From the NCBI GenBank assembly GCA_038139415.1, contig JAYOSV010000012.1, positions 1 through 64,000 on the forward strand: a DNA stretch of 64,000 nucleotides. Reading direction: 5' to 3'. Shown piece by piece: positions 14,125-31,715 of the stretch. The notes beneath the pieces were generated by a model. The model was not told where the DNA came from and ran no database searches. It worked only from the letters and a program-made list of their open reading frames with translations. This stretch comes from Verrucomicrobiales bacterium (GTDB lineage Bacteria; Verrucomicrobiota; Verrucomicrobiia; Limisphaerales; UBA1100). The position numbers and the translations under genes are program-made. The first letter of the stretch is position 1. Each line of letters opens with the position of its first letter.

Positions 14125-14200
14125 GCGCGGGCGACAGTAACGGCTCCGGCATGAAGCATCTAATTGATTCGGGGAGAGTAACCATCAATTCAGTCGATAC

Positions 14201-15442
14201 TTAAAAGGACTCTCCACCCGGGTGAGAATTGTGGGCATTTATGTGATCCAGACCTGCCTGCACCCCGGCCTCGAATTGATCGGTCAAAGCCGCCATGGCC
14301 AGACGCGGCTTGGCGGCCGCCGCTAGTTGTTCGGACACACAAATCAGATCGCCAAAGCGGACGGTCACCGCGCGATCCGCATAGGCCGGAAACGCCCGCG
14401 AGTACAGGTCCTCCCGCATTTTCTCGATCGTTTCCCCCACTCGATCGAGCGTGGGTTTTTCACTGAGATAATTACCTGCATAGCTGAGAATCCGAAATGC
14501 AATGATCGCTTCATCGGCCCAACCGGCCGCGACCGCGTGATCAATCTCTCGATCCGGATCGGAACGCACCTTGTGAATCTCGCGACGTACGGCGCGGATG
14601 CGATCCATTAGGTCGTCGTCCTCATTGGTGTTCAACCCCATCTTCGCCTCAAGTTGATTCAAAATCTGTCGGGCGCATTGCTGTAGAAGCTTGGGCAGAT
14701 CGCTATAATCCGGATTCGGCGGCAGGAACCCACGCTGAGAAAGGTTACGTCGGATCATCGCCACGCCCACGGAATGCACCTGGGGAACGATACCATCTTC
14801 ACCGGAAATCTCTACCCCGAGCTGCTCAGCCATGTGATCTAGCGTCTCCCGCAAAGTCACCCTAGCATCGGTGGTGTGAGTAGCCTTAATTGAAACTGGT
14901 ACGGCAAAAATCCGACCGGCATCCTTCATCCCCTGTTGCGCCTTCATCGCGATGTACGCCGGACCTTCCAGAAACGGCGTCACGCGGTCGTTCATGAAAT
15001 ACACGTTACCCTCGGGAAATACCGTGAGCGCGTATCGGCCATCAATCACCGTGGCAATAGCGTCCTTCATGGACCGCCGATCACTCCCATCTCGATTGAC
15101 CGAGAAAGCCCCCATGCGCTGCATCATCCATCCCTGCGCCCGATTGCGCAGAAATACATCGTACGCTGCCATGAAAATGGACCACACCCCGACCTGCCGA
15201 CAGGCCTCAGCCATAATCATTGGATCACTATGCGTAGAATGGTTCGGCAACAACACCACCCGCGCGCCGTGTTCGCGCTGAATATTCTGCAACGGCCCGG
15301 CATTCTCCACCGTCACCGATTGGATCCGATGCTCCGGCCCTGCTAACAGATATCTCCGAGACCACCACTCCCCCAGCCAAGCAATCAGCCGGTTGGGTTT
15401 GGGCGGGAAATATTCGTAAGGCTGGTCGCTAAACTGCAGCAT
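14201..15442 (-). CDS. PlsC-family lysophospholipid acyltransferase (Aas-like) with C-terminal extension
   Basis: HxxxxD acyltransferase motif NHSTHSDP. FPEG motif (VFPEGNVY). 413 aa, so roughly 200 extra C-terminal residues. Confidence 0.7.
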   Translation of the reverse strand: MLQFSDQPYEYFPPKPNRLIAWLGEWWSRRYLLAGPEHRIQSVTVENAGPLQNIQREHGARVVLLPNHSTHSDPMIMAEACRQVGVWSIFMAAYDVFLRNRAQGWMMQRMGAFSVNRDGSDRRSMKDAIATVIDGRYALTVFPEGNVYFMNDRVTPFLEGPAYIAMKAQQGMKDAGRIFAVPVSIKATHTTDARVTLRETLDHMAEQLGVEISGEDGIVPQVHSVGVAMIRRNLSQRGFLPPNPDYSDLPKLLQQCARQILNQLEAKMGLNTNEDDDLMDRIRAVRREIHKVRSDPDREIDHAVAAGWADEAIIAFRILSYAGNYLSEKPTLDRVGETIEKMREDLYSRAFPAYADRAVTVRFGDLICVSEQLAAAAKPRLAMAALTDQFEAGVQAGLDHINAHNSHPGGESF

Positions 15443-16619: not shown

Positions 16620-17657
16620 CTACCTCGCTTTAATCTCCACCGCCAAGTCCGGCAAATACATCGGCGAACTGCCGCACAACACGGCATCGGCTCCGGCCGC
16701 CATGAAATCCTCATAATCCTGCACCGACGACACCCCGCCCACCGCCGCCAACGCCAACGGCAATTCCTCGGCATCAATCACTGCCCGCGCCTCGCGCACC
16801 GCCTTGACGCACGGTTCATGGATGATTCGCCCCAACACACCGGCCCGGAGATATTGCTCCCCAAACACCGGTCGACCATCGGGATACCGCACCTCGCGTG
16901 CGATGCCGTTGACCAATGTAATTCCGTTCGCGCTACCGGAGACTGTCCGCAAAAAGTCCCGCTGTAATGGCGCATCTGGAAAAACCCCGATCTTTAACAA
17001 CAACGGCAAGTCCCCCATGCCCGAGCGAATGGTTTCAGTGACTGTTTCACTCAGGGCCACATCCGTGTACACCTGTCCTTCGGCTGAGCAGACATTGGGG
17101 CAGGAATAATTCGCCTCCACCACATCCGCCCCCGCTTCCACTGCCCAGGCCGCGCATTGCGCGTAATCATCGGCCACCTGCGCGGCACTCCATCCAGCTT
17201 CCGGGCTGGCCACCACAGAGACAATCAGCAATTGCCCCGGCACCAACGCCGCCTTCGCCCGGGCAATATCCTCACGCCAAAATGCCGGCTCACGAGATGG
17301 CATGCCGAAACAAACCGCTGAACTGACGGCCGCCGGATCCGCCGGAAACGTTTCGGTGGCAACCACCGGCCCCTCTCCGGCATCGGCATCCACGAATACC
17401 CAATTGGGTACTGGATAACATTCCCGTGCCACCGATCGCACCGTCTTGTAAGTCAACAAATCCCAACCCCGCGCCGCGTATGCCCCGATCCATTTGGCAT
17501 TGGGCAACAACCCGGCGGCTACGCCCAACGGACTATTAACCGCACGACCAAGAAACGGGCGTGGCGAAGTTTGTGGGACGGCAGGAACCGCATCGAGCTG
17601 CGGACCGCGCTCAAAGTTTTCAGCGTAAGTCGCAGCAATATCGTAGGCCAACTGCAC
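16620..17657 (-). CDS. Dihydroorotate dehydrogenase-like (class 1 DHOD/DHPD family) flavin oxidoreductase
   Basis: NYSCPN motif, as in the DHOD active-site loop (NxSCPN). TIM-barrel flavoprotein pattern with a C-terminal GG...D FMN-binding region. ~60-aa N-terminal extension. Could be pyrD or a paralogue. Confidence 0.6.
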   Translation of the reverse strand: MQLAYDIAATYAENFERGPQLDAVPAVPQTSPRPFLGRAVNSPLGVAAGLLPNAKWIGAYAARGWDLLTYKTVRSVARECYPVPNWVFVDADAGEGPVVATETFPADPAAVSSAVCFGMPSREPAFWREDIARAKAALVPGQLLIVSVVASPEAGWSAAQVADDYAQCAAWAVEAGADVVEANYSCPNVCSAEGQVYTDVALSETVTETIRSGMGDLPLLLKIGVFPDAPLQRDFLRTVSGSANGITLVNGIAREVRYPDGRPVFGEQYLRAGVLGRIIHEPCVKAVREARAVIDAEELPLALAAVGGVSSVQDYEDFMAAGADAVLCGSSPMYLPDLAVEIKAR

Positions 17658-17689
17658 GCGGAAAGGGTAATCGTTGGGAACGAAACTGG

Positions 17690-18706
17690 CTAGTTTTGAA
17701 CGAAGCGATAATTGCCGTCATTCTCCGCCGCGATTTGCTTGAGCACGGCTTCCCCCGATTTATCTTTGAAGGCAACGGTGTTTATTCGGATGACGGCTTG
17801 AGGATTGGCCTCCCGAATTTGGCCCAGCACTTCATGCTCATTCTTAAATTGACCGTCCGTCAGCAACCACACGGTATCGGGTTTGAGATTAAACGTAAAC
17901 CGCAAGGCATCGCGCGGATCGGTGCTGCCGCCCACATTACGCCCTTCGATCCAGCGCGCGGCCCACGCGACATTTTCCGGAGCCGCCGCCATCATCGCCT
18001 TCGCCGGCATTGGCTCCGCACCGTGATCGAAAAAGTAGACCATGAAGAGCGTGTCCGGTTTGAGGCTCCGCAGCGTGGCTATCAGTTCCCGCTTGGCTTT
18101 AGCGAGCCGGCCTTGGCTATTCATGCTGCCGGATTTATCGATCACAAAAACAAACCGTTTCCCCTTGCTGCGCGTGCCAAAGAAACTCACGCCCTCTTCC
18201 GGCTTGGTGTGAAGCATATGGAGATTCTGCACGGCGGCCCCGTGCCCCTGCAGGGCAGCTTTGCCCCACCAATATTCGGCCGCCGGCTTGTTCATGGGGC
18301 GACCTCGGCCGCTGAAAAATATATTCCCCAAATCCACCTGCGCCGCGGCATTCCCCACGGTGGCCTGGCGGATAAGATTCAGAATTTCAGGTTCCGAGGG
18401 CACCGGCTCTGGACTAGCCTCTCCGGATTGAACGGCTTGCGCGATTGGCGGCGTAGGATCCGACGCGGGTAACTTGCCCGGTTCGGGAGATTCTGGAGAA
18501 GGCGCCGTTTCCGCTTCGGGTTCATTGATCGAGGAAACCGCTGGTGATTCGTTTACCAACGCCTGCCCACTCTTCGCCACCCGTGGGTTTACAGGAGTCG
18601 CCGCGGGTTCATCTTTGGAACAACCGACCCAAGCCAAAGCTAACCAGAGGAGACTCGCGGTCGGGAGCAAAACACGCCTCATTGATAAAAATAACACTGT
18701 TTTCAA
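17690..18706 (-). CDS. von Willebrand factor A (VWA) domain lipoprotein
   Basis: Lipoprotein signal (LALAWVGCSKD). Pro/Glu/Ser-rich linker. VWA MIDAS motif FVFVIDKSGSM. Confidence 0.7.
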   Translation of the reverse strand: MKTVLFLSMRRVLLPTASLLWLALAWVGCSKDEPAATPVNPRVAKSGQALVNESPAVSSINEPEAETAPSPESPEPGKLPASDPTPPIAQAVQSGEASPEPVPSEPEILNLIRQATVGNAAAQVDLGNIFFSGRGRPMNKPAAEYWWGKAALQGHGAAVQNLHMLHTKPEEGVSFFGTRSKGKRFVFVIDKSGSMNSQGRLAKAKRELIATLRSLKPDTLFMVYFFDHGAEPMPAKAMMAAAPENVAWAARWIEGRNVGGSTDPRDALRFTFNLKPDTVWLLTDGQFKNEHEVLGQIREANPQAVIRINTVAFKDKSGEAVLKQIAAENDGNYRFVQN

Positions 18707-18720
18707 AGTCCCGCAACCGG

Positions 18721-19290
18721 CTAAGGGTCGAGGTATTTGCGGTTTTTATACACCGGAACCCCCAATAACTTCAGGTCACTGTGCACGGCCGTTCCCAGAG
18801 AGCGGACGGAAAACAAATGTTTTCCGGTGGCAGATTCATATCCAGTGATGGCGATGGCTGATTTACCCTCCTGGCGTTCGTATCTATAGAAATACGCGGA
18901 CGGCGTCTGGAAGGTACCCACGCTGGGTACGGGGATGGGAATAGAGGGGATGCCAATGTTTGTCTTGGATTCATCAATACCCAGACCGCCGGAGCGCGCC
19001 TCGACGATGACCTCAGCCTGATCGAGATCCGTCACCAGCTGGGCGCCCAATTGCAGTAACCGATCGCGCAACTCGCCTTGTGTGAATTCCACATCCACCG
19101 TCTTGAGATAAGTGACATTCACCGCCACCTTTTTGCCGGCCACTGCATCGGCCTGAATCTGGCGTGCGGCATCCTCCACGGCGCTGCTCATGATCAATTG
19201 CTCCGTAGCGGTACGTTCAGGCTGAGTCTCCCGCACAGACGTGCAACCCACGACACATAACAACGGCACTAGCAAAATCCATCGGGTCAT
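18721..19290 (-). CDS. Hypothetical lipoprotein
   Basis: Signal plus lipobox LLCVVGCTS. No recognised catalytic motif. Confidence 0.5.
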   Translation of the reverse strand: MTRWILLVPLLCVVGCTSVRETQPERTATEQLIMSSAVEDAARQIQADAVAGKKVAVNVTYLKTVDVEFTQGELRDRLLQLGAQLVTDLDQAEVIVEARSGGLGIDESKTNIGIPSIPIPVPSVGTFQTPSAYFYRYERQEGKSAIAITGYESATGKHLFSVRSLGTAVHSDLKLLGVPVYKNRKYLDP

Positions 19291-19327: not shown

Positions 19328-20767
19328 TCACTCGCCCCAGCCTTCGGCCAAACGCACAAGCGTCCGCACGGCCACGCCGCTGGCGCCCGTGCCGCAGTTG
19401 GGTTGCGCCTTGTCCACCCAGCATGTGCCGGCGATGTCCAGATGCGCCCAGGGCGTGCCATCCACAAACTGTTCCAGAAACTTGCCGGCAGTGATGGTCC
19501 CAGCCTTACGATCCGCCGAGGCGTTACGCAGATCGCTCATGTCGCCCTTCATGGCGTCGAGATATTCCGGGTCCATCGGCAACGGCCAGAACCGTTCGCC
19601 GCACTGCCGGCCGCGCAGAGCGATGGCGTCGCCGAGATCCTTGTCGTTGCCCAGCAACGCCACCCGAATACTGCCCAAAGCGACACTCACTGCCCCTGTG
19701 AGCGTGGCGGCATTGACAATGTGCGTCGCGCCCAGACGGGTCGCGTAAGTCAAGGCATCGGCCAACACCAAACGGCCTTCGGCATCGGTGTTGATCACTT
19801 CAATGGTTTTACCGTTTAGCGCGGTGATGATATCGCCCGGGCGGGTGGCGGTGCCGCTGGGCATGTTTTCAGCCATGGCCAACAGGCAACTGACGCGCAC
19901 GCCCGGTTTGAGCCGGCCGATCGCGGTAATGGCGCCAAGCATGGTGCCTGCACCGCCCATATCATACTTCATTTTCTCCATGCCACCAGGCGGCTTGAGC
20001 GAGAGGCCGCCGGTGTCAAAGGTGATGCCTTTGCCGACGAGAAAGAGGTGATCGTTGCTCGTGGGATTTTCGGGCACATAACTCAGGCGCACGAGGCGCG
20101 GCGGACGCACCGAACCTTGCCCCACGGCCAACAGTGCACCGGCACCCATTTCGGAAAGGGCGGTTTCATCGAACACTTCCACTTCCAAACCGGCCGCCGC
20201 GCCTTCCTGCGCGGCCCGCATCGCAAATTCCTCTGGGCCCAAATCGTTGGCGGGAATCTCCACCAACTCGCGGGCGAGATTGATGCCCTGAGCTGTGAGC
20301 TGGCCGCGATCGGCTTCCGCCGGTTCCGCGCCGGTCAGGAGAATAACCTCCTCCACCGGCCACGATTTCTGATCTTTGTAACCACTTGGCCGATGCATAC
20401 CGTAGACCGCACCTTCAGCCATCAGTCGGGCATCCGTGCCTTCTGGCAGGAGAATAGCCACGGACCGACACTTGGCTTTGGCGGCTTGACGCACGGCCTG
20501 ACCGGCGGCGGCAAACCAGTGACGCGGCATCGGCTCGGCACCGACGCCCAAGAGAAAGAGGCGTTGCACGGAGGATTCGGGAACGCGATGGATTAGTGTG
20601 CATTGGCCGGCTTTGCCGGTCCATTCGCCGTTGTCGCGTAGTTCGCCGATTAAACCGCCTAGGCGAGCGTCCAGGGTCGCGTCCGGCGTGGTGCCGGTTG
20701 CCAGCGGAACTGCCAGCGCGTCAATGTCGAGTTCCTCCCAGTTTCCGGAGTGGATGGTGATTTTCAT
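19328..20767 (-). CDS. pepA: Leucyl aminopeptidase (M17 family)
   Basis: M17 signature NTDAEGRLVLADAL. Overall cytosol-aminopeptidase layout. The start overlaps the stop of the upstream acyltransferase gene (ATGA). Confidence 0.9.
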   Translation of the reverse strand: MKITIHSGNWEELDIDALAVPLATGTTPDATLDARLGGLIGELRDNGEWTGKAGQCTLIHRVPESSVQRLFLLGVGAEPMPRHWFAAAGQAVRQAAKAKCRSVAILLPEGTDARLMAEGAVYGMHRPSGYKDQKSWPVEEVILLTGAEPAEADRGQLTAQGINLARELVEIPANDLGPEEFAMRAAQEGAAAGLEVEVFDETALSEMGAGALLAVGQGSVRPPRLVRLSYVPENPTSNDHLFLVGKGITFDTGGLSLKPPGGMEKMKYDMGGAGTMLGAITAIGRLKPGVRVSCLLAMAENMPSGTATRPGDIITALNGKTIEVINTDAEGRLVLADALTYATRLGATHIVNAATLTGAVSVALGSIRVALLGNDKDLGDAIALRGRQCGERFWPLPMDPEYLDAMKGDMSDLRNASADRKAGTITAGKFLEQFVDGTPWAHLDIAGTCWVDKAQPNCGTGASGVAVRTLVRLAEGWGE

Positions 20768-21432
20768 AATGCTTCTTGGTCGGGGCCGGGCTCGATCTGA
20801 GCGATGGCGTGCAGTAGATCGGTGGCGGCCTGTTTATAGATTTCCTTCAGGCGATCCTTGTCCTTCGTCTGTTTTGCCTCGGCCCGAAGATCGGCGAAGT
20901 CGAGCGGTTCGCCAAACTTTATTTGTACCTGATACGGCCGGGGCAGCCAATGATGCCGCGCGTACGCCTCGTAGGCCCCGAATAATTTGATAGGCACAAC
21001 CGGCGCGGTACTCTTGATAATGATCAGCCCGATCCCCGGCTGCGGGGCGCGGATTTGGCCGGTGGGCGAGCGGGTGCCTTCGGGATACATGATCACCGCA
21101 TCGCCACTGCGCAGGCGGGAGAGGAACGTCTTCAGCCCGCGACCGGTTCCAGTTTGATCCACTGGAATGACGCGCCAACTGCGCAGTATGCGGCCGCCCA
21201 AGGGCACGTTGAAGGCACTCTCACGTGCCAACCCCACGACCATGCGTTCCAACGCGCTGACGACATAAACCGGATCCAGATAACTGACGTGGTTCGAGGC
21301 GAGGATCACTCCGCCCTTTGCCGGCACTCGCTCGCGATGGAGCACTTTCCAGCGAAACCAAATCCGGAAGAACATGCCAAATGTGAACCGGGCGAAACGA
21401 TACGAAAGCGTTGTCTCGGTTGGCTCAGGCAT
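20764..21432 (-). CDS. 1-acyl/alkyl-sn-glycerol-3-phosphate acyltransferase (PlsC/AGPAT family)
   Basis: HxxxxD motif NHVSYLDP and YPEGTRS motif. The start is set at MPEPTETT; the ORF-track 54-aa N-terminal extension overlaps the upstream gene and is rejected. Confidence 0.75.
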   Translation of the reverse strand: MPEPTETTLSYRFARFTFGMFFRIWFRWKVLHRERVPAKGGVILASNHVSYLDPVYVVSALERMVVGLARESAFNVPLGGRILRSWRVIPVDQTGTGRGLKTFLSRLRSGDAVIMYPEGTRSPTGQIRAPQPGIGLIIIKSTAPVVPIKLFGAYEAYARHHWLPRPYQVQIKFGEPLDFADLRAEAKQTKDKDRLKEIYKQAATDLLHAIAQIEPGPDQEAL

Positions 21433-21437
21433 GGCTG

Positions 21438-22250
21438 CTATTCCGTTTTGCCCTGCCCGCTGACCTTGCCACGCACCTTGCGGCGCAATAGGCCCGGCCA
21501 AAGCAGTTTTAGCCAGGGCACCAACCGCAGCTTGGCGGGCACCACCAATTCCCGATCCCGTCGACGCAACGCCTCGAGTACGGCCAACGAACATTCCTCG
21601 GCAGAAATGGATTCACTCGTGTGCGAGCGTCGACCGTCGCCGACCAGCGAGCCATCGGCCGAACAGGCATTGGCGCGCAGTTGGGTACCGCGTATCCAGT
21701 GCGGGTGCACGGTGAGCACGTTAATGCCCGTGCCTTCCAGGTCGTAGCGCAACGCCTCGCAAAAGCCTTCCAGCGCATGCTTACTAGCCACGTAACCTGT
21801 GTGGCTCGGCACGCCCATGCGACTTTGGATGCTGGCGATCGCGGCGAATTGGCCGCGACTCTTCTTGAGATACGGCAGGGCATGATGCATGCCGTGCACG
21901 GCTCCAAGATAGTTTACCTCCATTAACCGGCGGAAAATACTCAGGTCCTTCACTTCTTCAAACGGCGCCCACATGCTGAGGCCGGCGTTGGAGAGATACA
22001 GGTCCACTCCGCCAAATCGATTGACCGCGGCCTCCACCAAGGCGCCGCAATCCTCGGGCTGGGTGACATCGCCGATTACCGGGAGTGCTTCGCCGCCGGC
22101 TTCGTTGCAGATCTTGGCGGTTTCCTCCAACTCCGCTGCCTGGCGTCCGTGCAGCACGCAGTGTGCGCCACAGGACGCGAAGTCGCGCGCCAGTTGGCGG
22201 CCGAGGCCTGAGGAGGCTCCGGTGATTATGACGGTTTGACCGGCAAACAT
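21438..22250 (-). CDS. Short-chain dehydrogenase/reductase (SDR); candidate acyl/alkyl-DHAP reductase
   Basis: TGASSGLG cofactor motif. YxxxK (YVASK). The start overlaps the AGPS stop by 1 nt. Confidence 0.8.
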   Translation of the reverse strand: MFAGQTVIITGASSGLGRQLARDFASCGAHCVLHGRQAAELEETAKICNEAGGEALPVIGDVTQPEDCGALVEAAVNRFGGVDLYLSNAGLSMWAPFEEVKDLSIFRRLMEVNYLGAVHGMHHALPYLKKSRGQFAAIASIQSRMGVPSHTGYVASKHALEGFCEALRYDLEGTGINVLTVHPHWIRGTQLRANACSADGSLVGDGRRSHTSESISAEECSLAVLEALRRRDRELVVPAKLRLVPWLKLLWPGLLRRKVRGKVSGQGKTE

Positions 22251-23986
22251 CAGTTACCCTTCTTGAAAGATTGAATGACCTCTTCGGTCAAGCCCCATTC
22301 GGCCAACGGATGTTCGCCCGGGATGATCTTGCCGGGGTTCATGACCCCATTGGGGTCCAGCCCATTCTTTAGGGACGCCACGGCCTTGACGCCAGTGGGG
22401 GACAGATCCGCCTCGATCCACGGCAGATGTTCGGAACCCACAGCATGGTGATGACTGACCGTGCCGCCATGTTCCATGAAGGAATCTTCCGCGGCTTTCT
22501 TGACGTACAAATATTGATCCAACTCGCGCCCCTCGATCTGCCGGCAACCGAATGTGAAATAGAGGCTCGCGCCGGTGTGGTAGTTATGGCTGATGTGACA
22601 GCCCACCCACGGATCCGCGCCGGTGTCGCGAATGGCTTGGCGAATGTTTTCCAGTGTGCGGGTGTAGAGCGTCAGCAAATTGTCCCAAGTGGTGGCGGTC
22701 TCACTCACATCACCCATCACGCCACGGTCCATAAGATAATCGCGCACATGCGGGAAATCATATTTAGCCTCCTGAAAGGAGCGTCCAGGCCCTTCGCCCA
22801 GGCACACGCCGCCGTGGCGCTTGAAAATGTGGGCGGACTCCCGTCGTTGTTGGTGGAAGGTATCGTAATCCCCCTCACAAGCCGTAGTCATCATGCAGCA
22901 CTGGGTAAAGTCGAATCCCTTGATCGTGCGCAAATACCATTTCAGCGCGGCCCCGATCTGTGCCTTTAAGCCGGTGTCTGGTTTTTTGAATGCCGCACTC
23001 AGAGCCGTTTTGCCCGGATCATTCAACCGCGTGATCACCGGCATGATCCCCATGCGCATGCATGTCTGAATCGCCTTCACGCCGCTTTCGAAATCCGGAA
23101 ACAACCAACCTTCAAACACCTTATATTCCGGCAACCGGTGCACCTGCATGGTGAGCTCGGTAATCACTCCCAGAATTCCCTCACTGCCCACGCATAATCC
23201 GCGCACGTCAATTCCGTTGGAGGAATTCGGCACGGTACGGGTCACGATCGTGCCGCTGGGAGTAACCATGCGCAGAGCGATCACCATGTCCTCAATCTTA
23301 CCATACTTGTCGCTCTGCATGCCGGCCGATCGCGTGGCAACCCAGCCGCCGAGAGTGGAGTGCACAAAGGAATCGGGGAAATGCCCCAGCGTCACGCCTT
23401 CGGCTTCCAGCTGTTCCTCCATGTGCGGCCCGTACACGCCGGGTTGGATGCGGGCGATCAGGGATTTTTTATCCACCTCCAGCACTCGATGCATGCGACA
23501 CATGTCGAGGCTGACAATGAACCGGTTCTCGCGATCCTTGGGTTCCAGGCAGCCGGCGATGTTGGAGCCGCCGCCGAAGGGAATGAGCACCGCGTTGTGC
23601 TCGTGCGCAGCCTTCACGATGGCCACCACGTCCTCTTCACTGGCAGGATACACCACGAGGTCCGGCGCGACATCTACCTGCCCGCGACGCAACCGGAACA
23701 AATCCCGAAACGCCTTACCGGCCGCGTGCACCAAGCGATCCTTCTTGGTGGCGGACAATTGATTGGTCTTTAGCGCGACTTCTAGCGCCGCAGTGAATGG
23801 TCCATTCACCTTGGCCGCCGGTAAATCAACTTCCTCAAAGGAAACCGGTGGCGTGCGATGATCGTCGACCAAGCCCAGCTCACCCTTGAGGTACGGCCAC
23901 AGCTTCGGCTTGTCGGCATCGCTGAAGGTGACGTCTTCGTCGCCCCAGCCCCACCATTTCATGTGCCGCACAGTTGCATCAGCCAT
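22250..23986 (-). CDS. Alkyldihydroxyacetonephosphate synthase (AGPS; FAD-linked oxidase family)
   Basis: N-terminal KWWGWGDEDVTF, matching the AGPS RWNGWGY hallmark. FAD-binding PCMH-type domain. The AGPS-specific catalytic triple-His loop SHHHAVGSEH. The start overlaps the upstream acyltransferase stop by 8 nt. Confidence 0.85.
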   Translation of the reverse strand: MADATVRHMKWWGWGDEDVTFSDADKPKLWPYLKGELGLVDDHRTPPVSFEEVDLPAAKVNGPFTAALEVALKTNQLSATKKDRLVHAAGKAFRDLFRLRRGQVDVAPDLVVYPASEEDVVAIVKAAHEHNAVLIPFGGGSNIAGCLEPKDRENRFIVSLDMCRMHRVLEVDKKSLIARIQPGVYGPHMEEQLEAEGVTLGHFPDSFVHSTLGGWVATRSAGMQSDKYGKIEDMVIALRMVTPSGTIVTRTVPNSSNGIDVRGLCVGSEGILGVITELTMQVHRLPEYKVFEGWLFPDFESGVKAIQTCMRMGIMPVITRLNDPGKTALSAAFKKPDTGLKAQIGAALKWYLRTIKGFDFTQCCMMTTACEGDYDTFHQQRRESAHIFKRHGGVCLGEGPGRSFQEAKYDFPHVRDYLMDRGVMGDVSETATTWDNLLTLYTRTLENIRQAIRDTGADPWVGCHISHNYHTGASLYFTFGCRQIEGRELDQYLYVKKAAEDSFMEHGGTVSHHHAVGSEHLPWIEADLSPTGVKAVASLKNGLDPNGVMNPGKIIPGEHPLAEWGLTEEVIQSFKKGN

Positions 23987-24707
23987 GCAGTTCCTTCATC
24001 TTGCGAATACGTGATTCCATTTCGGTGGTGATGGCCGTGTAGATCGACCGCCCCTTGCCATGTTCCTCGGCAAAACGGTGCGGGTCAATCGCTTCGCCAA
24101 TATAAATTCGCACCCGCGTCGGGCGAATGATTTTCACGCCCTTAGGATAAGCGCGGTGGGTGCCGTCGATATACACCGGCACGATGGGCAGATTTAGCTC
24201 GGTGGCAATCATCGCCGCACCCTTTTTCATGGTCGACATATCGCCGGACTGCGACCGCGTTCCTTCGGGGTAGATGATGATGCTGCGATTCCGGTGCGAG
24301 GTAAATTCCCGGCAAGCCACCATCAACCGCACGATGCTCTCGCGCGACGCACCGCGATCAGCCGGGATCAAGTTCATCAGACGTGAGAGAAAATTGTTCC
24401 GGCTTTTGTTATCGAAAAAATAATCCTTCGCCGCCACCATGCCGTACTGGTCAAAATCCTCCCCGCCGGCATACATCAATGCCGCGCTGTCCATATGACT
24501 GCAGTGGTTGCTGCAAAAAATAAACGGCGCACTGGGTAGGTTCTCCCTTCCCTCCACCTTGGCTGGACACCAGAGATTGAAGAGTGCACGACAGAAGAGC
24601 TCAAAGCACTTGTGCCAAACCGCGGTCATCCCGCGCGGATCACTCTTTAGATACGCGTATTCCGGGTCCAGCTCCGCTTGCTTCAGCTTGTCCTGAAAGG
24701 TCGACAA
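23979..24707 (-). CDS. PlsC-family acyltransferase; candidate DHAP acyltransferase (GNPAT-like)
   Basis: HxxxxD motif NHCSHMDS. YPEGTRS motif. Position immediately 5' of AGPS. Confidence 0.7.
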   Translation of the reverse strand: MSTFQDKLKQAELDPEYAYLKSDPRGMTAVWHKCFELFCRALFNLWCPAKVEGRENLPSAPFIFCSNHCSHMDSAALMYAGGEDFDQYGMVAAKDYFFDNKSRNNFLSRLMNLIPADRGASRESIVRLMVACREFTSHRNRSIIIYPEGTRSQSGDMSTMKKGAAMIATELNLPIVPVYIDGTHRAYPKGVKIIRPTRVRIYIGEAIDPHRFAEEHGKGRSIYTAITTEMESRIRKMKELHG

Positions 24708-24709
24708 CC

Positions 24710-25861
24710 TTATCTCCCGAATTTAGCGTGAGCCTCGGCAAACTCATTGCTGACAATCGCGCCTGCCAATGAAATCTCCAACGCCAGCGCCGAGGCACAA
24801 ATAATTTCCGCCAGTTTACGCGAAGAATACTGCCCCCCCGCGCAGCCTACCAACTGCAGGTTGCCGTGCTGCGCGTTCAAGCGCGTCGCACCGCCCACCG
24901 TGCCGACCGTGAGGCTTGGCATACTAAGTGTGGCATACAAATCTTCCCCGCGTTTCTCATAAGTAGCAATGCCGATGGCGTTCTCCGCCACACAAGCCAC
25001 ATCCTGCCCCAGTGCCAGATACAACGCCGCCAGCGCATTGGCCACGTGCAGGTTCATACCCAGAAGGCCGGCCATTTGTGAGCCGAGATGTTTATCCACC
25101 AACGCCTCCAAAATCTCATCCGCCGAAACCCGCAGCAGCTTTTTTAACACCCGATTGGGCACCTGAAAACTGGCGATCACATGATGCCCTCGCCCCTTCA
25201 TGAGGCTGCGCTGCGCGGGGTTTTTGTCCGCGTTGAAATTACTCTCCACCAGATACCGGTACGGCGTGCCGTTGGAGAGATTCTCCACAATGTACCGGCA
25301 AGCGGCGTCGGTGCTGAGCGTTACCATGTTTTGGCCGGCAGCCTCCGCGGTGTCGTAAATGAAATCGAGAATCACCCGGTTGTGAATGGGGAGTTTATCG
25401 ATGCGCAGCAGCTTGCCGTGGTGCGTGGTGCTCTCGGCCGCCGCCTTGATCTCATCATAATGTACATCAATCTGCTCCATGAACTGGAGTGCCTGCTCGA
25501 TTTCATTAAAGCGAAACACCGGCGCGCGTGACAGCTCCTGCTTCACATGCCGTGTCTTAATGCCGCCGCTGCGGTGCGTGAGATAGAAGCCGCGCGTCAT
25601 AGAAAGTGACAACGTCCCCTCCACCGTGCACAAGGGCACATAAAAATCGCCCTGCGCGTAGGTGCCATCAATCTTGAGTGGACCTGACACACTCTGCGGC
25701 AGGCCCACGAAGCCCACGTGATTTTCGATCAGTCCCTTGAGATTATCCGGTTCATCCAGAGCAAACTCCGGCATCGCGTGCCCTGTCTGCTCCTTCAACC
25801 AAAGACGGCGCGCCTCGGTATCCGCCTGAGTATAGCCCCGCGGTGGTGTGAGTTTATTCAT
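24710..25861 (-). CDS. HMG-CoA reductase family (class I catalytic domain only, soluble) thioester reductase
   Basis: Aligns by eye to class I HMGR blocks: TVEGTLSLSMTRG (≈TTEGCLVASTNRG), AEAAGQNMV (≈GDAMGMNM), ALYLALGQDVACVAEN (≈AIYIACGQDAAQNV), TVGTVGGAT (≈EIGTVGGGT). The catalytic Glu, Lys and Asp equivalents appear present. The C-terminal His region is diverged. First gene of the operon, 2-nt gap to the next. Confidence 0.75.
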   Translation of the reverse strand: MNKLTPPRGYTQADTEARRLWLKEQTGHAMPEFALDEPDNLKGLIENHVGFVGLPQSVSGPLKIDGTYAQGDFYVPLCTVEGTLSLSMTRGFYLTHRSGGIKTRHVKQELSRAPVFRFNEIEQALQFMEQIDVHYDEIKAAAESTTHHGKLLRIDKLPIHNRVILDFIYDTAEAAGQNMVTLSTDAACRYIVENLSNGTPYRYLVESNFNADKNPAQRSLMKGRGHHVIASFQVPNRVLKKLLRVSADEILEALVDKHLGSQMAGLLGMNLHVANALAALYLALGQDVACVAENAIGIATYEKRGEDLYATLSMPSLTVGTVGGATRLNAQHGNLQLVGCAGGQYSSRKLAEIICASALALEISLAGAIVSNEFAEAHAKFGR

Positions 25862-25961: not shown

Positions 25962-28283
25962 TTACTTATGCTCTCCCTGTCCCAACCACACCGGTAACAG
26001 CACCAGTGCTGCCAGTAAAGCCCCTGCCAGTCCCACCGCCAATAATAGCCCGAAATGCACCACCGGCGGGAATACCGACACCCAGAAAACCATCATCATC
26101 CCCACCAAGATGATCGTGGTCGCCACAATCGGCCGCCCTTTTACCCGCAAGGCCGACCGGGTGGCTTCAGCCGGAGTCGCCCCCGTCAGCCGTTCATCCC
26201 GCCAATGCGTGATAAAATGAATCGTGTCATCCACTGCCACCCCCAAAGCGATCGCCGCCACCATGATGGTTATTGAATTCAGCGGCACACCGGCAAACCC
26301 CTGCAAGGCGATGATCATTCCCACAGGCAATAAATTCACCGCCAACGCCAGCACGGCCAATCCCACTGATCTCCACAGCACGGCCAAGATGACGCCGATG
26401 ACGCCCACGGACCACCCCACACTGCGGCGTTGGCTGCGCACGATCCGTCGGTCCGCTTCGAGGATACTTCGAATCCCGTTTTCCGCGGAGACCGTCACAT
26501 TCGTTGGAGCCGCCGTGCGCGCTTCGGTTTCCACTCGCTCCAGTAATTCCAAATACTCACTGCTCGGCATGTCGCGCGTGCGCAGAGTGAGTTGGGCCGT
26601 CTGGAAATTGGTGTCGCACAACATCGTGAGGAACGGCAGTTGCTCTTTCTGCGAAGCCACAAAGCCAGAAAAGAGCGTGGTCATCAGCGGATTTTCCGGC
26701 AGGCGAAACGTCCCTTCCTGACCGCCTTCCCACACCTCGTTAATCGCCGCCATTAATTGCGTGTAGGAATACACCGCCGTCACTCCCGGCTCACGCGCCG
26801 CTAGTTGATGCACCGAATCGAGGTATTGCAAAAAATAAGGATTGTTCAAACCGTTGGTGATGCCCGAATCCACCTGCACCTGCACCACATTAATGCCGCC
26901 GTAGGCATCGTCCATTTCCTCAATCATCACGCGCGTAGGACTGTTGCCGTTCAGGAATTCCACCGCCCGCACATCCGTCCGCACTTGACTCAACCCCACC
27001 AGCAGCAATACCGCACTCAACACCAATAACACCGCCATCGGCTGGCGCATTGCCTGCATACGATCCGCCCATTCCGACCAACCCAAACGATTCGCTTCGG
27101 GGTTGTATTCAGGCGCGGGTTTGTCTCGAGAAGACCGTTTCGCGAACAACACCGGCAGCCAGGCCAGCCCCGGCCCAAAGGTCAGCCCGAATAACATCGC
27201 AATCCCGCTCGCGCCAAGCACACCGAATTCGCGCAATTGCTCAACGTCACTGGCCACCAGGGCCAGTAACCCCGTAATCGTCGTCAGCGCCGCAAACCCG
27301 CTGGCGCGCAGGACTTCCCGGCCCATTGATTTCACGGCTACCATCGCCTCCTCGCCGGCCAGCCAAGCCCGCTGGAATGAGGTCGCCACATGCGTCAACA
27401 GCGTGAGATGCACCGCACTCAACAACGGCACCAACAGAGTTGTAAAAATATTCAGCTGCTGACCGGATAACTGATACAACGCCGGCAACAGCACCAGCCC
27501 CATCACTTGATTCGCCAGCACGTACACCATTAGGCGCGGGGTCCGACGAAAGGTGAACGCCAACACCACCAGTAACAGCCCCAACGCCGCCGGCACAAAC
27601 CGCGCAGCGTCCGTTTTCACGGCAGTTCGAATTTCATGCTCAATCAACGGCAACCCGATTGCGTTTACCGAATGACCGCGTTGCCGAAATTGTTCCAACA
27701 CCGCGCCAATTTCCTGATCAAACACCGTCTGCTCTTCCGTGGTCACCAACGGCCGGGTGTAATTGGCTAGGATCACCGTGTGCCGGCCGTTTTCCGCCAC
27801 CAGAATATTTCGGGCATAGGGATGTTTCTGCGACCAATGCCGCAGCTCGCTCATCCCCGAGGCATCCAGTCTGGATGGCACAATATTTTTCCAGACCAAC
27901 CCAAACCCTTGCCGCACCGGCCGTTGGGCGGTTACCAAACTGTGCACGTTGGTGATCGAAAACGCCTGCCCCTGCACATTGGTCACCTCCGTCACCGCCC
28001 CGGGCACTTTCCCCAGTTCCCATGTCACCTCGCGGATCAATTCCAGCCCAGCCGGCGAATACACCTCGCCGCAATCTAGGCTCACCGCAATTGGCACCGT
28101 CTCCCCCAGGACCTCCCGGGCCGTCTCGTAGCTTTGCAAGTTACGTTGATCGCCCGTGAGCAGATCATTTATCTCGGTATCCACTTCCAGATTGACCATC
28201 CAAACTGAAATTCCGCAGGCCGCTAGCAACACACACAGGGTGGCTCGCGGGAAATTCAGAAATGGATAACGCAACATCTTCAA
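25962..28283 (-). CDS. MMPL/RND-superfamily (HpnN-like) 12-TM exporter
   Basis: 773 aa. Two 6-TM bundles, each followed by a large periplasmic loop; the layout typical of MMPL/SSD transporters. Confidence 0.75.
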   Translation of the reverse strand: MKMLRYPFLNFPRATLCVLLAACGISVWMVNLEVDTEINDLLTGDQRNLQSYETAREVLGETVPIAVSLDCGEVYSPAGLELIREVTWELGKVPGAVTEVTNVQGQAFSITNVHSLVTAQRPVRQGFGLVWKNIVPSRLDASGMSELRHWSQKHPYARNILVAENGRHTVILANYTRPLVTTEEQTVFDQEIGAVLEQFRQRGHSVNAIGLPLIEHEIRTAVKTDAARFVPAALGLLLVVLAFTFRRTPRLMVYVLANQVMGLVLLPALYQLSGQQLNIFTTLLVPLLSAVHLTLLTHVATSFQRAWLAGEEAMVAVKSMGREVLRASGFAALTTITGLLALVASDVEQLREFGVLGASGIAMLFGLTFGPGLAWLPVLFAKRSSRDKPAPEYNPEANRLGWSEWADRMQAMRQPMAVLLVLSAVLLLVGLSQVRTDVRAVEFLNGNSPTRVMIEEMDDAYGGINVVQVQVDSGITNGLNNPYFLQYLDSVHQLAAREPGVTAVYSYTQLMAAINEVWEGGQEGTFRLPENPLMTTLFSGFVASQKEQLPFLTMLCDTNFQTAQLTLRTRDMPSSEYLELLERVETEARTAAPTNVTVSAENGIRSILEADRRIVRSQRRSVGWSVGVIGVILAVLWRSVGLAVLALAVNLLPVGMIIALQGFAGVPLNSITIMVAAIALGVAVDDTIHFITHWRDERLTGATPAEATRSALRVKGRPIVATTIILVGMMMVFWVSVFPPVVHFGLLLAVGLAGALLAALVLLPVWLGQGEHK

Positions 28284-28389: not shown

Positions 28390-29757
28390 ATGCTTTCCCG
28401 CAGAAACTGGCTACTCACCGCTTCCCTTGCCGCCGTCGCGCCCATGACAGGGCTGTCTCGGCTGCAACCAGCCGCACGCCCCGGCCGCACTGAGCCGGGC
28501 TTTCGTATCAAAGACATTCGGCGCACCACCGTCGCCCTGCCGTATCGCCCCGTGCCCGCACGTAACATGGCCCGCGAATTGCCGCATTGGGTGTACACGG
28601 AAATCTGCGAGGTGGAGCTGGCCAATGGAACAGTCGGATTTGGCGAGACGATGCTGTACTACACTTGGGGTGCCACAAGCGATGAGGATGTGAACTTTGC
28701 CAATGGCAAAAACGCCGCCACCATTATGTGGAATGACGAACTGGGTGCCGGATTGCAAATGGCCTGTTTCGATGCCGTCGCCCGCGCCATGGATGTGCCT
28801 ATCCACGCACTGCTCGGCAAACAGGCTCACACCCGTACGCCGGTGGCCTGGTGGGATATCGATCTGCCTCCGGAAGATGTCGCCGCCGAAACCAAAGCCG
28901 CCGCCGCCGCCGGATACACCGCCTTCAAAACCAAAGGCCGCCCGTGGTTTGATATCTGGGAACAAGCCAAGCAAGGCAACGCCGCCGCGCCGGAAGGGTT
29001 TTCGATCACGTTTGATTACAACGATACCCTGCTCGACGCCGAACGCGGCATTCCGATCCTCAAGGCCGTGGAGCAATATCCCATCAGCAAGGTGGTGGAA
29101 ACCCCCATCCCGCAGGGCGACATCCCCGGCAACCAACGCATCCGGCGGGAAACCAAATCTGCGGTGGCCATGCACTACGGAAATCCCTCGCCGGTCGTCG
29201 CCATCCGCCAGCGCGTGTGCGACGGTTTTGTCGTGGGCGGAGGCGCCACCAGGGTCATGACTGCCGGCCGCATTGCCGCCATGGCCGACATGCCCTTCTG
29301 GCTACAGCTCGTCGGCAGCTCAATCACCGGCGCATGGTCGCGGCAATTCGGCGCCGTCCTTAGCCATGCCACCTGGCCGGCCGTAACCTGTTTCCAGTTG
29401 TACGCCGCCCAACCCACCAAACAAAACGTCGAGGTGCGCAACGGGTTCACCCCCATCCCCAATACACCAGGTCTGGGCGTGGAACTCGATTGGAAAGTCA
29501 TCAACCAATACAAAGTGCCCAAACCGCCCGAACGCCCCGAGCCCGAACGCCTGCTGGAAACCCGCTGGCCCGACGGCCGCAAGCTCTACATCGGCAGCAA
29601 CGGCAACGTGAATTATATGCTGCGGAAATTCATGAAGCCCAGCAACCTCTCCTACTTTGAACCCGGCGTGACCTGCCATCTGCTGGTGAACGACGGCTCC
29701 AAGGACTGGCGCGATCTCTATCAACGCGCCCGAAGACGCCCCGTGCTGACGCGCTAG
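28390..29757 (+). CDS. Enolase-superfamily (mandelate racemase/muconate lactonizing enzyme-like) protein with TAT signal
   Basis: Twin-arginine signal MLSRRNWLLTASLAAVAP. MR/MLE-like blocks ACFDAVARAMDVPIHALLGK and AFKTKGRPW. Confidence 0.55.
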   Translation: MLSRRNWLLTASLAAVAPMTGLSRLQPAARPGRTEPGFRIKDIRRTTVALPYRPVPARNMARELPHWVYTEICEVELANGTVGFGETMLYYTWGATSDEDVNFANGKNAATIMWNDELGAGLQMACFDAVARAMDVPIHALLGKQAHTRTPVAWWDIDLPPEDVAAETKAAAAAGYTAFKTKGRPWFDIWEQAKQGNAAAPEGFSITFDYNDTLLDAERGIPILKAVEQYPISKVVETPIPQGDIPGNQRIRRETKSAVAMHYGNPSPVVAIRQRVCDGFVVGGGATRVMTAGRIAAMADMPFWLQLVGSSITGAWSRQFGAVLSHATWPAVTCFQLYAAQPTKQNVEVRNGFTPIPNTPGLGVELDWKVINQYKVPKPPERPEPERLLETRWPDGRKLYIGSNGNVNYMLRKFMKPSNLSYFEPGVTCHLLVNDGSKDWRDLYQRARRRPVLTR

Positions 29758-31568: not shown

Positions 31569-31715
31569 TTTTACCCTGCACAGGTACGGCCTAATGTGGA
31601 AAAGACGCCTTTTAGACGTTTTTTCTGACATTTTCCAGGCTTCTCCTTAGCGCAAAATTCTCGGGATTATTTGAGCAACCATTATGCCATTTTGTGAATA
31701 AACAGTTAATAACAC

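Follow-up and report, generated by a model that had tools for sequence, protein, structure and literature searches.

The genes described here lie on the minus strand of a 64,000-nucleotide stretch of DNA (the window) from a marine Verrucomicrobiales bacterium, a source that agrees with the "PVC-like" host proposed in an earlier sequence-only reading. Five open reading frames span positions 20764–25861, with the coordinates given in that reading, and encode, in order, an FcrA-like homologue of HMG-CoA reductase (HMGR), acyltransferase 1, alkyl-DHAP synthase (AGPS), a short-chain dehydrogenase/reductase (SDR), and acyltransferase 2. The junctions confirm the tight coupling of these genes. A 2-nt gap separates the FcrA-like gene from the TTG start of acyltransferase 1 (TAA-GG-TTG), an 8-nt overlap joins acyltransferase 1 to AGPS (ATGGCTGA), and a 1-nt overlap joins AGPS to the SDR gene (TGATG), all three as previously read; the last gap, between the SDR and acyltransferase 2 genes, is 5 nt (TAG-CAGCC-ATG) rather than 6 nt. 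The longest open reading frame for acyltransferase 2, with its start at 21594, would reach 157 nt into the SDR gene. This start is disfavored, as orthologue matches in tblastn begin just after the SDR stop codon, and the orthologues instead support the ATG at 21432.

The AGPS gene (22250–23986, minus strand; 578 aa) encodes FAD_binding_4 and FAD-oxidase_C domains. These Pfam domains are common to GlcD and D-lactate dehydrogenase (D-LDH), and the NCBIfam matches are to GlcD, well under the cutoff. Accordingly, one could read the protein as a D-lactate, glycolate, or 2-hydroxyacid dehydrogenase, in which case the cluster would not be an ether-lipid pathway. This is extremely unlikely in light of the full-length matches to solved AGPS structures, with 445 bits (E 4e-132, 41% identity) to the Dictyostelium enzyme (2uuu) and 311 bits to the guinea-pig enzyme (4bby), versus about 100 bits to the next VAO-family chains and a similarity to GlcD and D-LDH confined to the N-terminal half. 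The motifs WWGWG (11–15) and SHHH (511–514) are present, and R320, Y469, and H512–H514 align with guinea-pig R419, Y578, and H615–617; the AGPS-specific WGWG motif, Arg, Tyr, and HHH loop are kept by the AGPS of every cassette compared. Judged by its sequence, the protein is a genuine member of the AGPS family (EC 2.5.1.26) and belongs to the Dictyostelium-like subtype, and its earlier identification by the WGWG N-terminus and HHH loop holds.

Upstream lies the FcrA-like gene (24710–25861, minus strand; 383 aa), the role of whose product had been left unassigned in the sequence-only reading. FcrA is an HMGR-derived fatty acyl-CoA reductase, characterized in 2025, that does not reduce HMG-CoA; its reported hallmarks, in human HMGR numbering, are the replacement of Ser684 by Glu and of Leu862 by Phe, and the loss of Lys735 (Grossi et al.; PMC11948995). 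The window protein has a strong match to PF00368 (HMG-CoA_red; 330 bits), its best solved match is an archaeal HMGR (6hr7, 263 bits), and the HMGR catalytic tetrad is kept (E81, K213, D287, and H378, corresponding to human E559, K691, D767, and H866). Moreover, Lys257 occupies the position of the HMG-binding Lys735, whose loss is the third FcrA hallmark. These features would suit a true HMG-CoA reductase of the mevalonate pathway whose adjacency to AGPS is incidental or, as a variant, one supplying isoprenoid alcohols for isoprenoid ether lipids. Several lines of evidence make this very unlikely, however. The protein fails the HMGR equivalog cutoff (TIGR00533; 283.8 bits versus 441.8), and E206 at human S684 and F374 at human L862 are the states of FcrA, which is inactive on HMG-CoA (PMC11948995). 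In the alignment, both of these states hold in nearly all 80 relatives, whereas the column of Lys735 varies across the family. In addition, neither the 64-kb window nor any of 55 cassette neighborhoods contains another mevalonate-pathway gene, and the FcrA-like gene is fixed beside AGPS across phyla. A neighbor-joining tree places the protein with other homologues bearing the E/F-W signature, apart from two canonical HMGRs and within a distinct subclade (100% support) physically linked to AGPS. On the strength of the FcrA hallmarks and the failed equivalog cutoff, the gene very probably encodes an FcrA-type reductase that supplies fatty alcohol, with predicted dependence on NADPH and fatty acyl-CoA or acyl-ACP as predicted substrate. 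With the missing fatty acyl-CoA reductase so provided, the predicted pathway would be complete from acyl thioester and DHAP, and a canonical FAR would be unneeded.

The remaining enzymes are less distinctive. Acyltransferase 1 (23979–24707, minus strand; 242 aa) belongs to the PlsC superfamily, with 81 bits to PF01553, 66 bits to TIGR00530 (PlsC; cutoff 103), and a single solved match, Thermotoga maritima PlsC (5kym, 69 bits). The motifs NHCSHMDS (67–74), PADRG (115), and YPEGTRS (146) were identified, and the protein resembles PlsC and Aas, with no sequence feature that separates DHAP from G3P or lyso-lipid acceptors. Thus, its earlier placement in the PlsC family stands; the label "GNPAT-like" finds no sequence evidence in this small PlsC-like protein. 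By the logic of the pathway, it would be the DHAP acyltransferase that makes 1-acyl-DHAP. The SDR (21438–22250, minus strand; 270 aa) is a classical member by adh_short (156 bits) and NF004825 (283 bits; cutoff 215), and the motifs TGASSGLG (10–17) and YVASK (153–157), on which it had first been recognized, are borne out. An Arg follows strand β2 (HGRQ at 34), which under established SDR rules points to NADP(H). The protein is otherwise generic by sequence, and we infer that it acts as an NADPH-dependent acyl/alkyl-DHAP reductase yielding 1-O-alkyl-sn-glycerol-3-phosphate.

The co-directional run does not end with acyltransferase 2. It continues through the coupled leucyl aminopeptidase gene pepA (19328–20767, minus strand; ATGA overlap), a DUF6655 lipoprotein gene, a VWA gene, and others, with no clear terminator before a strong one at 15494–15467; the whole run of more than five genes is possibly co-transcribed. 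Because this coupling extends to pepA, proximity by itself does not prove shared function, and the five genes could be read as mere neighbors. Comparison across genomes renders this very improbable. All 80 FcrA-like loci compared derive from MAGs or SAGs, and synteny was assessed in those species genomes whose FcrA-like gene shows 47% identity or more and is followed by sufficient DNA. The acyltransferase and AGPS genes lie directly downstream of the FcrA-like gene in 48 of 56 such genomes, and the SDR gene is also next in 41 of the 52 with more downstream room; counted by cassette, the SDR follows AGPS in 41 of 44 with sufficient downstream DNA. An order shared by 48 of 56 related genomes from several phyla is far beyond chance. 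These cassettes occur in Verrucomicrobiota, Planctomycetota, Marinisomatota, Bacteroidota/Ignavibacteria, Calditrichota, Gemmatimonadota, and Pseudomonadota, and Spirochaetota have the FcrA–AGPS pair only. The four-gene core (FcrA-like, acyltransferase, AGPS, and SDR) thus stays together over about eight phyla, including abundant uncultured ocean groups, while its surroundings change, and the cassette persists even where AGPS is of a different, animal-like subtype. Clustering of all open reading frames neighboring the cassettes revealed no conserved gene beyond this core. Therefore, of the five-gene operon originally proposed, the tight coupling remains, but the conserved unit comprises four genes and the run is longer than five.

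Acyltransferase 2, pepA, and an upstream transporter gene are Verrucomicrobiales additions to this core; the pepA overlap and the transporter gene are absent from the earlier reading. Acyltransferase 2 (20764–21432, minus strand; 222 aa) is PlsC/Aas-like, with 82 bits to PF01553, 58 bits to 5kym, a best, partial NCBIfam match to the Aas acyltransferase domain (PRK08633, 94 bits), and the motif NHVSYLDP (47–54). It occurs only in Verrucomicrobiales-type relatives (loci L001, L003–L007, and L010). The family and motif of this AGPAT-type enzyme were correctly read, but it is a lineage-specific add-on and not part of a conserved pathway unit; here it presumably acts as the sn-2 acyltransferase for 1-alkyl-G3P. 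The PepA protein (Peptidase_M17, 385 bits; NF002073, 473 versus a cutoff of 432) is probably a passenger of the transcription unit and not a pathway enzyme, its adjacency being kept only in L001, L003, L004, L006, L007, and L010. The MMPL/HAE3-type RND transporter gene (25962–28283, minus strand) lies 100 nt upstream of the FcrA-like gene on the same strand. Its product matches PF03176 (90 bits) and TIGR00921 (HAE3; 132 bits), with weaker HpnN matches. The gene precedes the cassette only in L001–L004, L010, and L058, and its product shows 39% identity across genomes in which the FcrA-like proteins share 97%; the transporter is thus lineage-specific and dimorphic among close relatives. It is possibly a lipid exporter and, as such, might move the ether lipid.

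Taken together, the gene identities, which are strengthened along with their coupling by the cross-phylum synteny, support the ether-lipid reading of the operon, and we assign a probability of roughly 0.75 to an AGPS-dependent route to 1-O-alkyl (plasmanyl) glycerolipids. In the proposed pathway, the FcrA-like protein would reduce a long-chain acyl thioester to a fatty alcohol with two NADPH, using HMGR-type chemistry (Glu81, Lys213, Asp287, and His378). Acyltransferase 1 would convert DHAP to 1-acyl-DHAP, on which AGPS, a flavoenzyme, would swap the acyl chain for the fatty alcohol, giving 1-O-alkyl-DHAP and a free fatty acid. The SDR and NADPH would then reduce the C2 ketone to 1-O-alkyl-sn-glycerol-3-phosphate, and the sn-2 acyl chain would be added by acyltransferase 2 in this lineage and presumably by a housekeeping PlsC elsewhere. 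The resulting 1-alkyl-2-acyl-G3P could enter ordinary phospholipid head-group synthesis, and none of these steps should require oxygen. The acyl donor would be a thioester of CoA or ACP; no acyl-CoA synthetase is linked to the locus. Neither is a desaturase of the CarF/PEDS1 kind, and the predicted product is therefore alkyl and not alkenyl (plasmalogen).

The end product is most plausibly a membrane lipid. As an alternative, the core enzymes may act as proposed with a neutral or signaling ether lipid or free alkylglycerol as output, or acyltransferase 1 may be the sn-2 acyltransferase for 1-alkyl-G3P, with acyl-DHAP drawn from another (PlsB/PlsY-type) enzyme. Both acyltransferases are generic and under family cutoffs, the conserved core holds only one of them, neither the 64-kb window nor the cassette neighborhoods contain linked head-group enzymes, and FcrA elsewhere serves wax-ester storage (PMC11948995). 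Conversely, DHAP acylation is the one step missing from ordinary bacterial phospholipid synthesis, and the simplest reading of a dedicated acyltransferase with a fixed place between the FcrA-like gene and AGPS is a DHAP acyltransferase, like the FAR/AGPS-tied acyltransferase of myxobacteria and eukaryotes (PMC13012113). Furthermore, no WS/DGAT gene is found near any cassette. We consider this alternative unlikely, although it carries some weight, and favor the plasmanyl membrane-lipid route. Carriers of elbD homologues without detectable ether lipids have been reported; gene presence is thus no guarantee of product.

The locus is thus very probably a peroxisome-like bacterial ether-lipid operon in which a repurposed relative of HMG-CoA reductase provides the fatty alcohol. 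We found no published description of this cassette; its parts are known, and the FcrA–AGPS link has already been suggested. In the eukaryotic peroxisomal pathway (FAR1/2, GNPAT, AGPS, DHRS7B/PexRAP, and AGPAT), the predicted reaction sequence and the key enzyme AGPS are the same, the ketone is likewise reduced by an SDR (as predicted here), and the acyltransferases come from the same PlsC/GPAT superfamily. The earlier term "eukaryote-type" is nevertheless strictly true for AGPS only, as the alcohol maker is FcrA-type, HMGR-derived, and a non-homologous replacement of FAR. Mammalian GNPAT has roughly 680 aa, whereas the candidate DHAP acyltransferase of the locus is a 242-aa PlsC-like protein. 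The bacterial pathway also lacks an organelle and a linked PEDS1 and is encoded in one operon.

Other bacterial routes, namely ElbD/elbB-E (myxobacteria and Acidobacteria SD4), anaerobic PlsA/PlsR, and Ger, also yield sn-1 alkyl or alkenyl glycerolipids but are unrelated in mechanism. ElbD combines FadD, ACP, FAR, and PlsC domains in one protein. PlsA/R and Ger act on an ester bond that is already in place, which they reduce by means of oxygen-sensitive enzymes of the benzoyl-CoA-reductase/dehydratase type (BBD-domain). Neither AGPS nor an HMGR homologue takes part in any of these routes. A closer bacterial counterpart is the MXAN_1676-1675-1674 operon of Myxococcus xanthus, which encodes AGPS and a FAR-GNPAT fusion and whose ether-lipid route is blocked by deletion of MXAN_1676 (PMC13012113). 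This operon is likewise AGPS-centered, with an alcohol-forming reductase and acyltransferase beside AGPS. However, its FAR domain is fused to the acyltransferase (FARAT), whereas the present locus has a separate FcrA-type homologue and a stand-alone acyltransferase, and has the SDR in its conserved core. In addition, myxobacteria possess CarF/PEDS1 and produce plasmalogens; no such desaturase is linked to the present locus. Finally, the FcrA proteins characterized from Halobacteriales and 'Ca. Promineifilum breve' share with the window protein the class-I HMGR fold family, the catalytic tetrad, Glu at Ser684, and a bulky aromatic residue at Leu862 (PMC11948995). They differ in serving wax-ester synthesis and in having an N-terminal Lad domain and a small residue at Lys735, whereas the window protein is core-only and retains Lys257. 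Grossi et al. independently suggested that some FcrA may supply alcohol for AGPS, the closest link they cited being an AGPS gene nine genes away (PMC11948995).

A five-gene, translationally coupled operon for eukaryote-type ether-lipid synthesis had been proposed at 20764-25861 by the sequence-only reading, and the five ORFs are all present on the minus strand, exactly where it placed them. In order, they encode an FcrA-like homologue of HMG-CoA reductase (HMGR; 24710-25861; 383 aa, HMG-CoA_red), acyltransferase 1 (23979-24707; 242 aa, acyltransferase domain), the alkyl-DHAP synthase AGPS (22250-23986; 578 aa, FAD_binding_4 and FAD-oxidase_C), an SDR (21438-22250; 270 aa, SDR domain), and acyltransferase 2 (20764-21432; 222 aa, acyltransferase domain). 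Every motif listed for these proteins was also found, namely NHCSHMDS, WWGWG, SHHH, TGASSGLG, YVASK, and NHVSYLDP. The junctions, read off the sequence, are a 2-nt gap between the FcrA-like gene and acyltransferase 1 (TAA-GG-TTG), an 8-nt overlap between acyltransferase 1 and AGPS (ATGGCTGA), a 1-nt overlap between AGPS and the SDR (TGATG), and a 5-nt gap between the SDR and acyltransferase 2 (TAG-CAGCC-ATG); the first three agree with the earlier spacing, and the last corrects a reported gap of 6 nt. The longest possible acyltransferase 2 ORF begins at 21594, within the SDR gene; the ATG at 21432 is supported as the start because orthologue alignments begin just past the SDR stop codon.

Two neighboring features were absent from the earlier account: the downstream gene pepA (19328-20767, minus strand) is joined to acyltransferase 2 by an ATGA overlap, and a gene for an MMPL/HAE3 RND transporter (25962-28283) lies on the same strand, 100 nt upstream of the FcrA-like gene. 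Only one minus-strand terminator in this region is convincing (15494-15467), so the co-directional run may be transcribed well past the five genes. The terminator scan was otherwise no better than shuffled sequence (18 terminator-like sites versus a shuffle mean of 16.8), promoter-like sites showed no excess over shuffled controls (1 versus a mean of 7.1), and an Rfam scan of the window returned zero matches. By composition, no horizontally acquired island is apparent, as the G+C content of the operon (0.56-0.61) is that of its flanks. None of the five proteins has a 19-residue stretch of the hydrophobicity typical for a transmembrane helix.

Several other genes in the window deserve mention in their own right. 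Downstream of pepA, at 16620-19290 (minus strand), are co-directional genes with short gaps encoding a DUF6655 lipoprotein-like protein, a protein with VWA and Sel1 domains, and a dihydroorotate-dehydrogenase-like protein; several further Sel1-repeat genes occur at 29754-31631 and 43584-45366. Just past the 15494-15467 terminator, an MFS transporter gene (545 aa) adjoins a third PlsC-family acyltransferase gene (413 aa) at 12487-15442 (minus strand), a pair resembling LplT/Aas-type lysophospholipid recycling. Two adjoining ORFs occupy 2163-10055 (minus strand): one encodes 1852 aa and carries AAA, DUF7902, and DUF3686 domains, the last described as "ATPase involved in DNA repair", and the other, of 774 aa, has no Pfam match. 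Two genes for lipid-modifying enzymes are not linked to the operon: one at 56436-57608 (minus strand) encodes a fatty-acid desaturase of PF00487, which is not the CarF/PEDS1 family, and one at 61152-61940 (minus strand) encodes a PhyH-family dioxygenase.

The central enzyme of the proposed pathway is, by every available sequence test, an AGPS-family protein. It matches PF01565 and PF02913, the two-domain architecture of VAO-type enzymes, and aligns over its full length with Dictyostelium AGPS (2uuu) at 445 bits (E 4e-132) and with guinea-pig AGPS (4bby) at 311 bits. Its residues R320, Y469, and H512-H514 align with Arg419, Tyr578, and His615-617 of the guinea-pig enzyme, which we take, from the solved-structure literature, to be catalytic or active-site residues, and these are kept in all cassette AGPSs of both subtypes described below. 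An N-terminal W-x-G-W-G motif also precedes the FAD domain (MKWWGWGDE, residues 9-17), with the counterparts IKWNGWGDT in Dictyostelium AGPS and MKWNGWGYN in guinea-pig AGPS. The sequence-only reading had raised the alternative that this FAD enzyme is a D-lactate-dehydrogenase-type oxidase. D-lactate dehydrogenase, glycolate oxidase, and other VAO chains do match the protein, but at approximately 100 bits or less and mostly over the FAD domain; given the far higher AGPS scores, the retained catalytic residues, and the WGWG motif, this alternative is therefore very unlikely. As an AGPS, the enzyme would putatively convert acyl-DHAP and a fatty alcohol to alkyl-DHAP and a fatty acid.

The main addition to the earlier reading concerns the source of that alcohol. 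A recent study characterized FcrA, an HMGR-derived fatty acyl-CoA reductase that neither reduces HMG-CoA nor is inhibited by statin (Grossi et al., 2025; PMC11948995). Its hallmarks are that the catalytic tetrad is kept, that Glu stands in place of Ser684 (human numbering) and a bulky residue in place of Leu862, and that the lysine which binds HMG is lost; in N. pharaonis FcrA, Glu360 and Trp528 occupy the Ser684 and Leu862 positions, and the lysine that binds the HMG carboxylate is generally replaced by a small residue (Grossi et al., 2025; PMC11948995). The paper prints this lysine as "Lys795", which we read as Lys735 because the N. pharaonis numbering sets it 44 residues past the catalytic Lys, as is human Lys735. 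Further criteria for the class are an elongated, hydrophobic pocket for the substrate, a preference for C14+ acyl-CoA over HMG-CoA, and a genome devoid of the other mevalonate-pathway genes.

The window protein matches PF00368 at 330 bits and keeps the tetrad (Glu81, Lys213, Asp287, and His378), which is invariant in alignment A1 of its relatives and in the 80 loci fetched with the resulting profile. The Ser684 position is Glu206, in a column where 77 of the 80 relatives have Glu, one has Asp, and two have Ala, and the Leu862 position is Phe374, with Phe or Trp in all relatives covering the column; the canonical HMGRs 6hr7 and 8ecg, in PDB alignments, have Ser and Leu at these respective columns. 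Canonical class I HMG-CoA reductase is accordingly a very unlikely assignment, with a TIGR00533 score of 283.8 against a cutoff of 441.8 and Glu and Phe at the two diagnostic positions. The remaining hallmark, loss of the lysine, is not seen in the window protein, which has Lys257 at the Lys735 column, next to an indel of one residue. Across the orthologues, this column is K/L/M/C/S/G/F and thus unconstrained, unlike in HMGR. His226 is the equivalent of human Lys704, as counted along the alignments. The protein is core-only, with neither a Lad nor an ACP domain. In a rough NJ tree built without N. pharaonis FcrA and Pb-FcrA, the enzyme of 'Ca. Promineifilum breve', the window protein fell in the AGPS-linked FcrA-like subclade, which received 100% support; this subclade grouped with the other homologues bearing the Glu and Phe/Trp signature, apart from the two canonical HMGRs, with 81% support. 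No mevalonate genes were found among the window ORFs scanned (64 kb) or in the neighborhoods of related cassettes. On these signatures, the "HMGR" of the window is very probably the fatty-alcohol-forming reductase of the pathway, of the FcrA type.

The remaining enzymes are assigned more cautiously. Acyltransferase 1 matches PF01553 and carries the HX4D and EGTR motifs (NHCSHMDS at 67 and YPEGTRS at 146), and its only solved-structure match is Thermotoga maritima PlsC. Both acyltransferases resemble Thermotoga PlsC and the acyltransferase domain of Aas, in each case below the curated cutoffs. From its position and the logic of the pathway, acyltransferase 1 is a candidate DHAP acyltransferase, and acyltransferase 2 presumably acylates sn-2 of 1-alkyl-G3P. 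The SDR scores 156 bits against adh_short and has the TGASSGLG motif, the catalytic residues S140-Y153-K157, and an Arg after beta-2, which suggests NADPH as the cofactor. Its solved-structure matches are generic SDRs (such as 3-hydroxybutyrate DH and 11-beta-HSD1, 80-98 bits); because the SDR follows AGPS in 41 of 44 cassettes, we infer that it acts as the acyl/alkyl-DHAP reductase, a function of the DHRS7B/Ayr1 type.

Linkage of these genes extends well beyond the window. A profile of the FcrA-like protein (alignment A1), searched against contigs representing one genome per species, identified 578 relatives, and the best 80 loci were fetched. Among these, 67 have FcrA-like proteins at least 47% identical to that of the window, 56 of them with at least 2.6 kb of downstream DNA and 52 with at least 3.6 kb. 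Orthologues of acyltransferase 1 and AGPS lie immediately downstream of the FcrA-like gene in 48 of the 56, and the SDR is also present in 41 of the 52. As labeled, the carriers belong to Verrucomicrobiota (including Lentisphaeria), Planctomycetota, Neomarinimicrobiota/SAR406 (the largest group), Bacteroidetes/Ignavibacteria, Caldithrix, and Gemmatimonadales, with Porifericomitaceae and Halothiobacillaceae labeled as Pseudomonadota; in two Spirochaetia loci, the FcrA-like gene is followed directly by AGPS. The remaining 13 of the best 80 loci have more distant FcrA-like genes, at 39-44% identity, and none of these lies near an AGPS. When every ORF within ~6-7 kb of 55 cassettes was clustered, only four genes (FcrA-like, acyltransferase 1, AGPS, and SDR) proved conserved, and all else varies with lineage; no acyl-CoA synthetase, CarF/PEDS1, head-group enzyme, or WS/DGAT recurs beyond single lineages. 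Of the further genes described for the window, acyltransferase 2, pepA, and the MMPL gene upstream accompany the cassette only in Verrucomicrobiales relatives. Thus, the functional unit is a four-gene cassette, of which the window holds a lineage-specific extended version.

The nearest proteins and genome loci to the window come from marine-type Verrucomicrobiales MAGs, including the loci L001 (JAYQQG01) and L002 (WTHG01), at 97% identity in the FcrA-like protein. In the public assembly collection, 134 indexed blocks contain the identical protein, with the same neighbors in every contig shown. Within this group, the MMPL/HAE3 gene between an MR_MLE gene and the FcrA-like gene is dimorphic: copies at the same site (window, 25962-28283, minus strand; L001, 5391-7715; L004, 2721-5060; L003, 7510-9912) are 39-42% identical where the FcrA-like and AGPS proteins are 92-97% identical, a pattern suggestive of gene replacement or of two anciently diverged alleles. 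A different, undescribed context occurs in two Parachlamydiales loci (L059, 10001-13411, and L065), in which the FcrA-like gene is not beside AGPS; the genes after it encode a 230-aa protein of the FA_hydroxylase family (PF04116) and an outer-membrane transporter of the FadL type, the run lying downstream of bamA and lpxD. In seven other loci, one from Verrucomicrobiota (L009, 4548-5501) and six from SAR406 (L033, 8918-9883, and five others), a same-strand 321-aa gene, judged by eye to be aldo/keto reductase-like, lies upstream of the FcrA-like gene, with another ORF intervening in L009; its product may be an accessory reductase.

The cassette AGPSs fall into two deeply split subtypes. For type A (27 loci, including the window), the nearer eukaryotic enzyme is Dictyostelium AGPS, at 38-45% identity (373-465 bits), with guinea-pig AGPS at ~32%; for type B (28 loci), it is guinea-pig AGPS, at 37-45% identity (384-474 bits), with Dictyostelium AGPS at ~30%. 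Identities to the nearer enzyme were also recorded as ~41-44% for type A and ~40-44% for type B. Type B is carried by SAR406, Lentisphaeria, and one Spirochaetia locus, and the loci noted for the subtype split include L016, L020, and L031-L061. Dictyostelium and guinea-pig AGPS share only 34% identity (305 bits), so each bacterial subtype has a closer relative in one of these enzymes than either of them has in the other. Judged from these identities, the two subtypes may bear on the unresolved origin of eukaryotic AGPS, for which the cassettes supply bacterial lineages.

In the proposed pathway, the FcrA-like enzyme would make the fatty alcohol and acyltransferase 1 the acyl-DHAP, AGPS would exchange the acyl group for the alkyl chain, and the SDR would reduce alkyl-DHAP to 1-alkyl-G3P. 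The sn-2 position could then be acylated by acyltransferase 2 or, in other lineages, by the housekeeping PlsC, and the product would pass into ordinary head-group synthesis. The substrates given in this scheme for both acyltransferases and for the SDR are presumptive, as are the acyl donor (CoA or ACP) and the class of lipid finally made. No acyl-CoA synthetase is linked to the operon, and no CarF/PEDS1-type desaturase is linked in the window or the cassette neighborhoods, so the predicted product is an alkyl rather than an alkenyl lipid. No step would need O2, which fits the presence of the cassette in lineages reported from suboxic and euxinic water. Sequence and comparison show that the FAD enzyme is an AGPS-family protein, that the HMGR homologue bears the FcrA-type signature, and that a widespread four-gene core stays linked; these findings support the ether-lipid interpretation of the sequence-only reading, and we put the probability that the locus makes AGPS-dependent alkyl glycerolipids at roughly three in four.

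Synthesis of sn-1 alkyl ether lipids in bacteria outside the myxobacteria and the anaerobic PlsA/Ger route is largely unknown, and surveys count isolated Agps homologues only. A compact cassette with complete reaction logic offers a directly clonable four-gene test of bacterial ether-lipid synthesis, and a clean answer to the question of the means by which many non-myxobacterial bacteria may make such lipids, with geochemical and evolutionary implications. It would also widen FcrA enzymes from wax-ester storage to membrane-lipid synthesis and offer organic geochemists candidate producers of marine alkyl glycerol ethers, anoxia included. A bolder and rather doubtful combined proposal is that the cassette is an undescribed O2-independent module serving as the main 1-O-alkyl glycerolipid route of several abundant uncultured marine lineages (SAR406/Marinisomatota, marine Verrucomicrobiales, and Planctomycetota), and that each of its two AGPS subtypes is, separately, the sister group or the donor of one eukaryotic form of the enzyme, Dictyostelium-type in one case and animal-type in the other. 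Were it true, the marine carriers would be major unrecognized sources of non-isoprenoid alkyl glycerol ethers in sea water and sediments, and two acquisitions of AGPS, not one, would be implied.

Specialists would not be greatly surprised, since FcrA was described in 2025 and Agps homologues are known to be spread among bacteria. A role in ether-lipid synthesis was suggested for some FcrA enzymes, with two examples: an AGPS gene located nine genes away from Pb-FcrA and, in Coxiella, a plsC-like neighbor of fcrA (Grossi et al., 2025; PMC11948995); beyond this speculation, no earlier description of an HMGR-like/AGPS cassette was found in open-access papers and preprints. For ether lipids in Verrucomicrobia or SAR406, the open-access literature gave only homologue counts, from Black Sea and sponge studies that tallied Agps homologues in MAGs of Verrucomicrobiota, Marinisomatota, and other groups and gave no gene context. 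The cassette is a variant of a known pathway and not categorically new. It follows the same reaction scheme as the eukaryotic peroxisomal pathway and the M. xanthus MXAN_1676-1674 operon, in which AGPS lies beside a FAR-GNPAT fusion. In the window, by contrast, an HMGR derivative not homologous to FAR appears to take over the FAR step, the acyltransferase is small, PlsC-like, and unfused, and the SDR belongs to the core.
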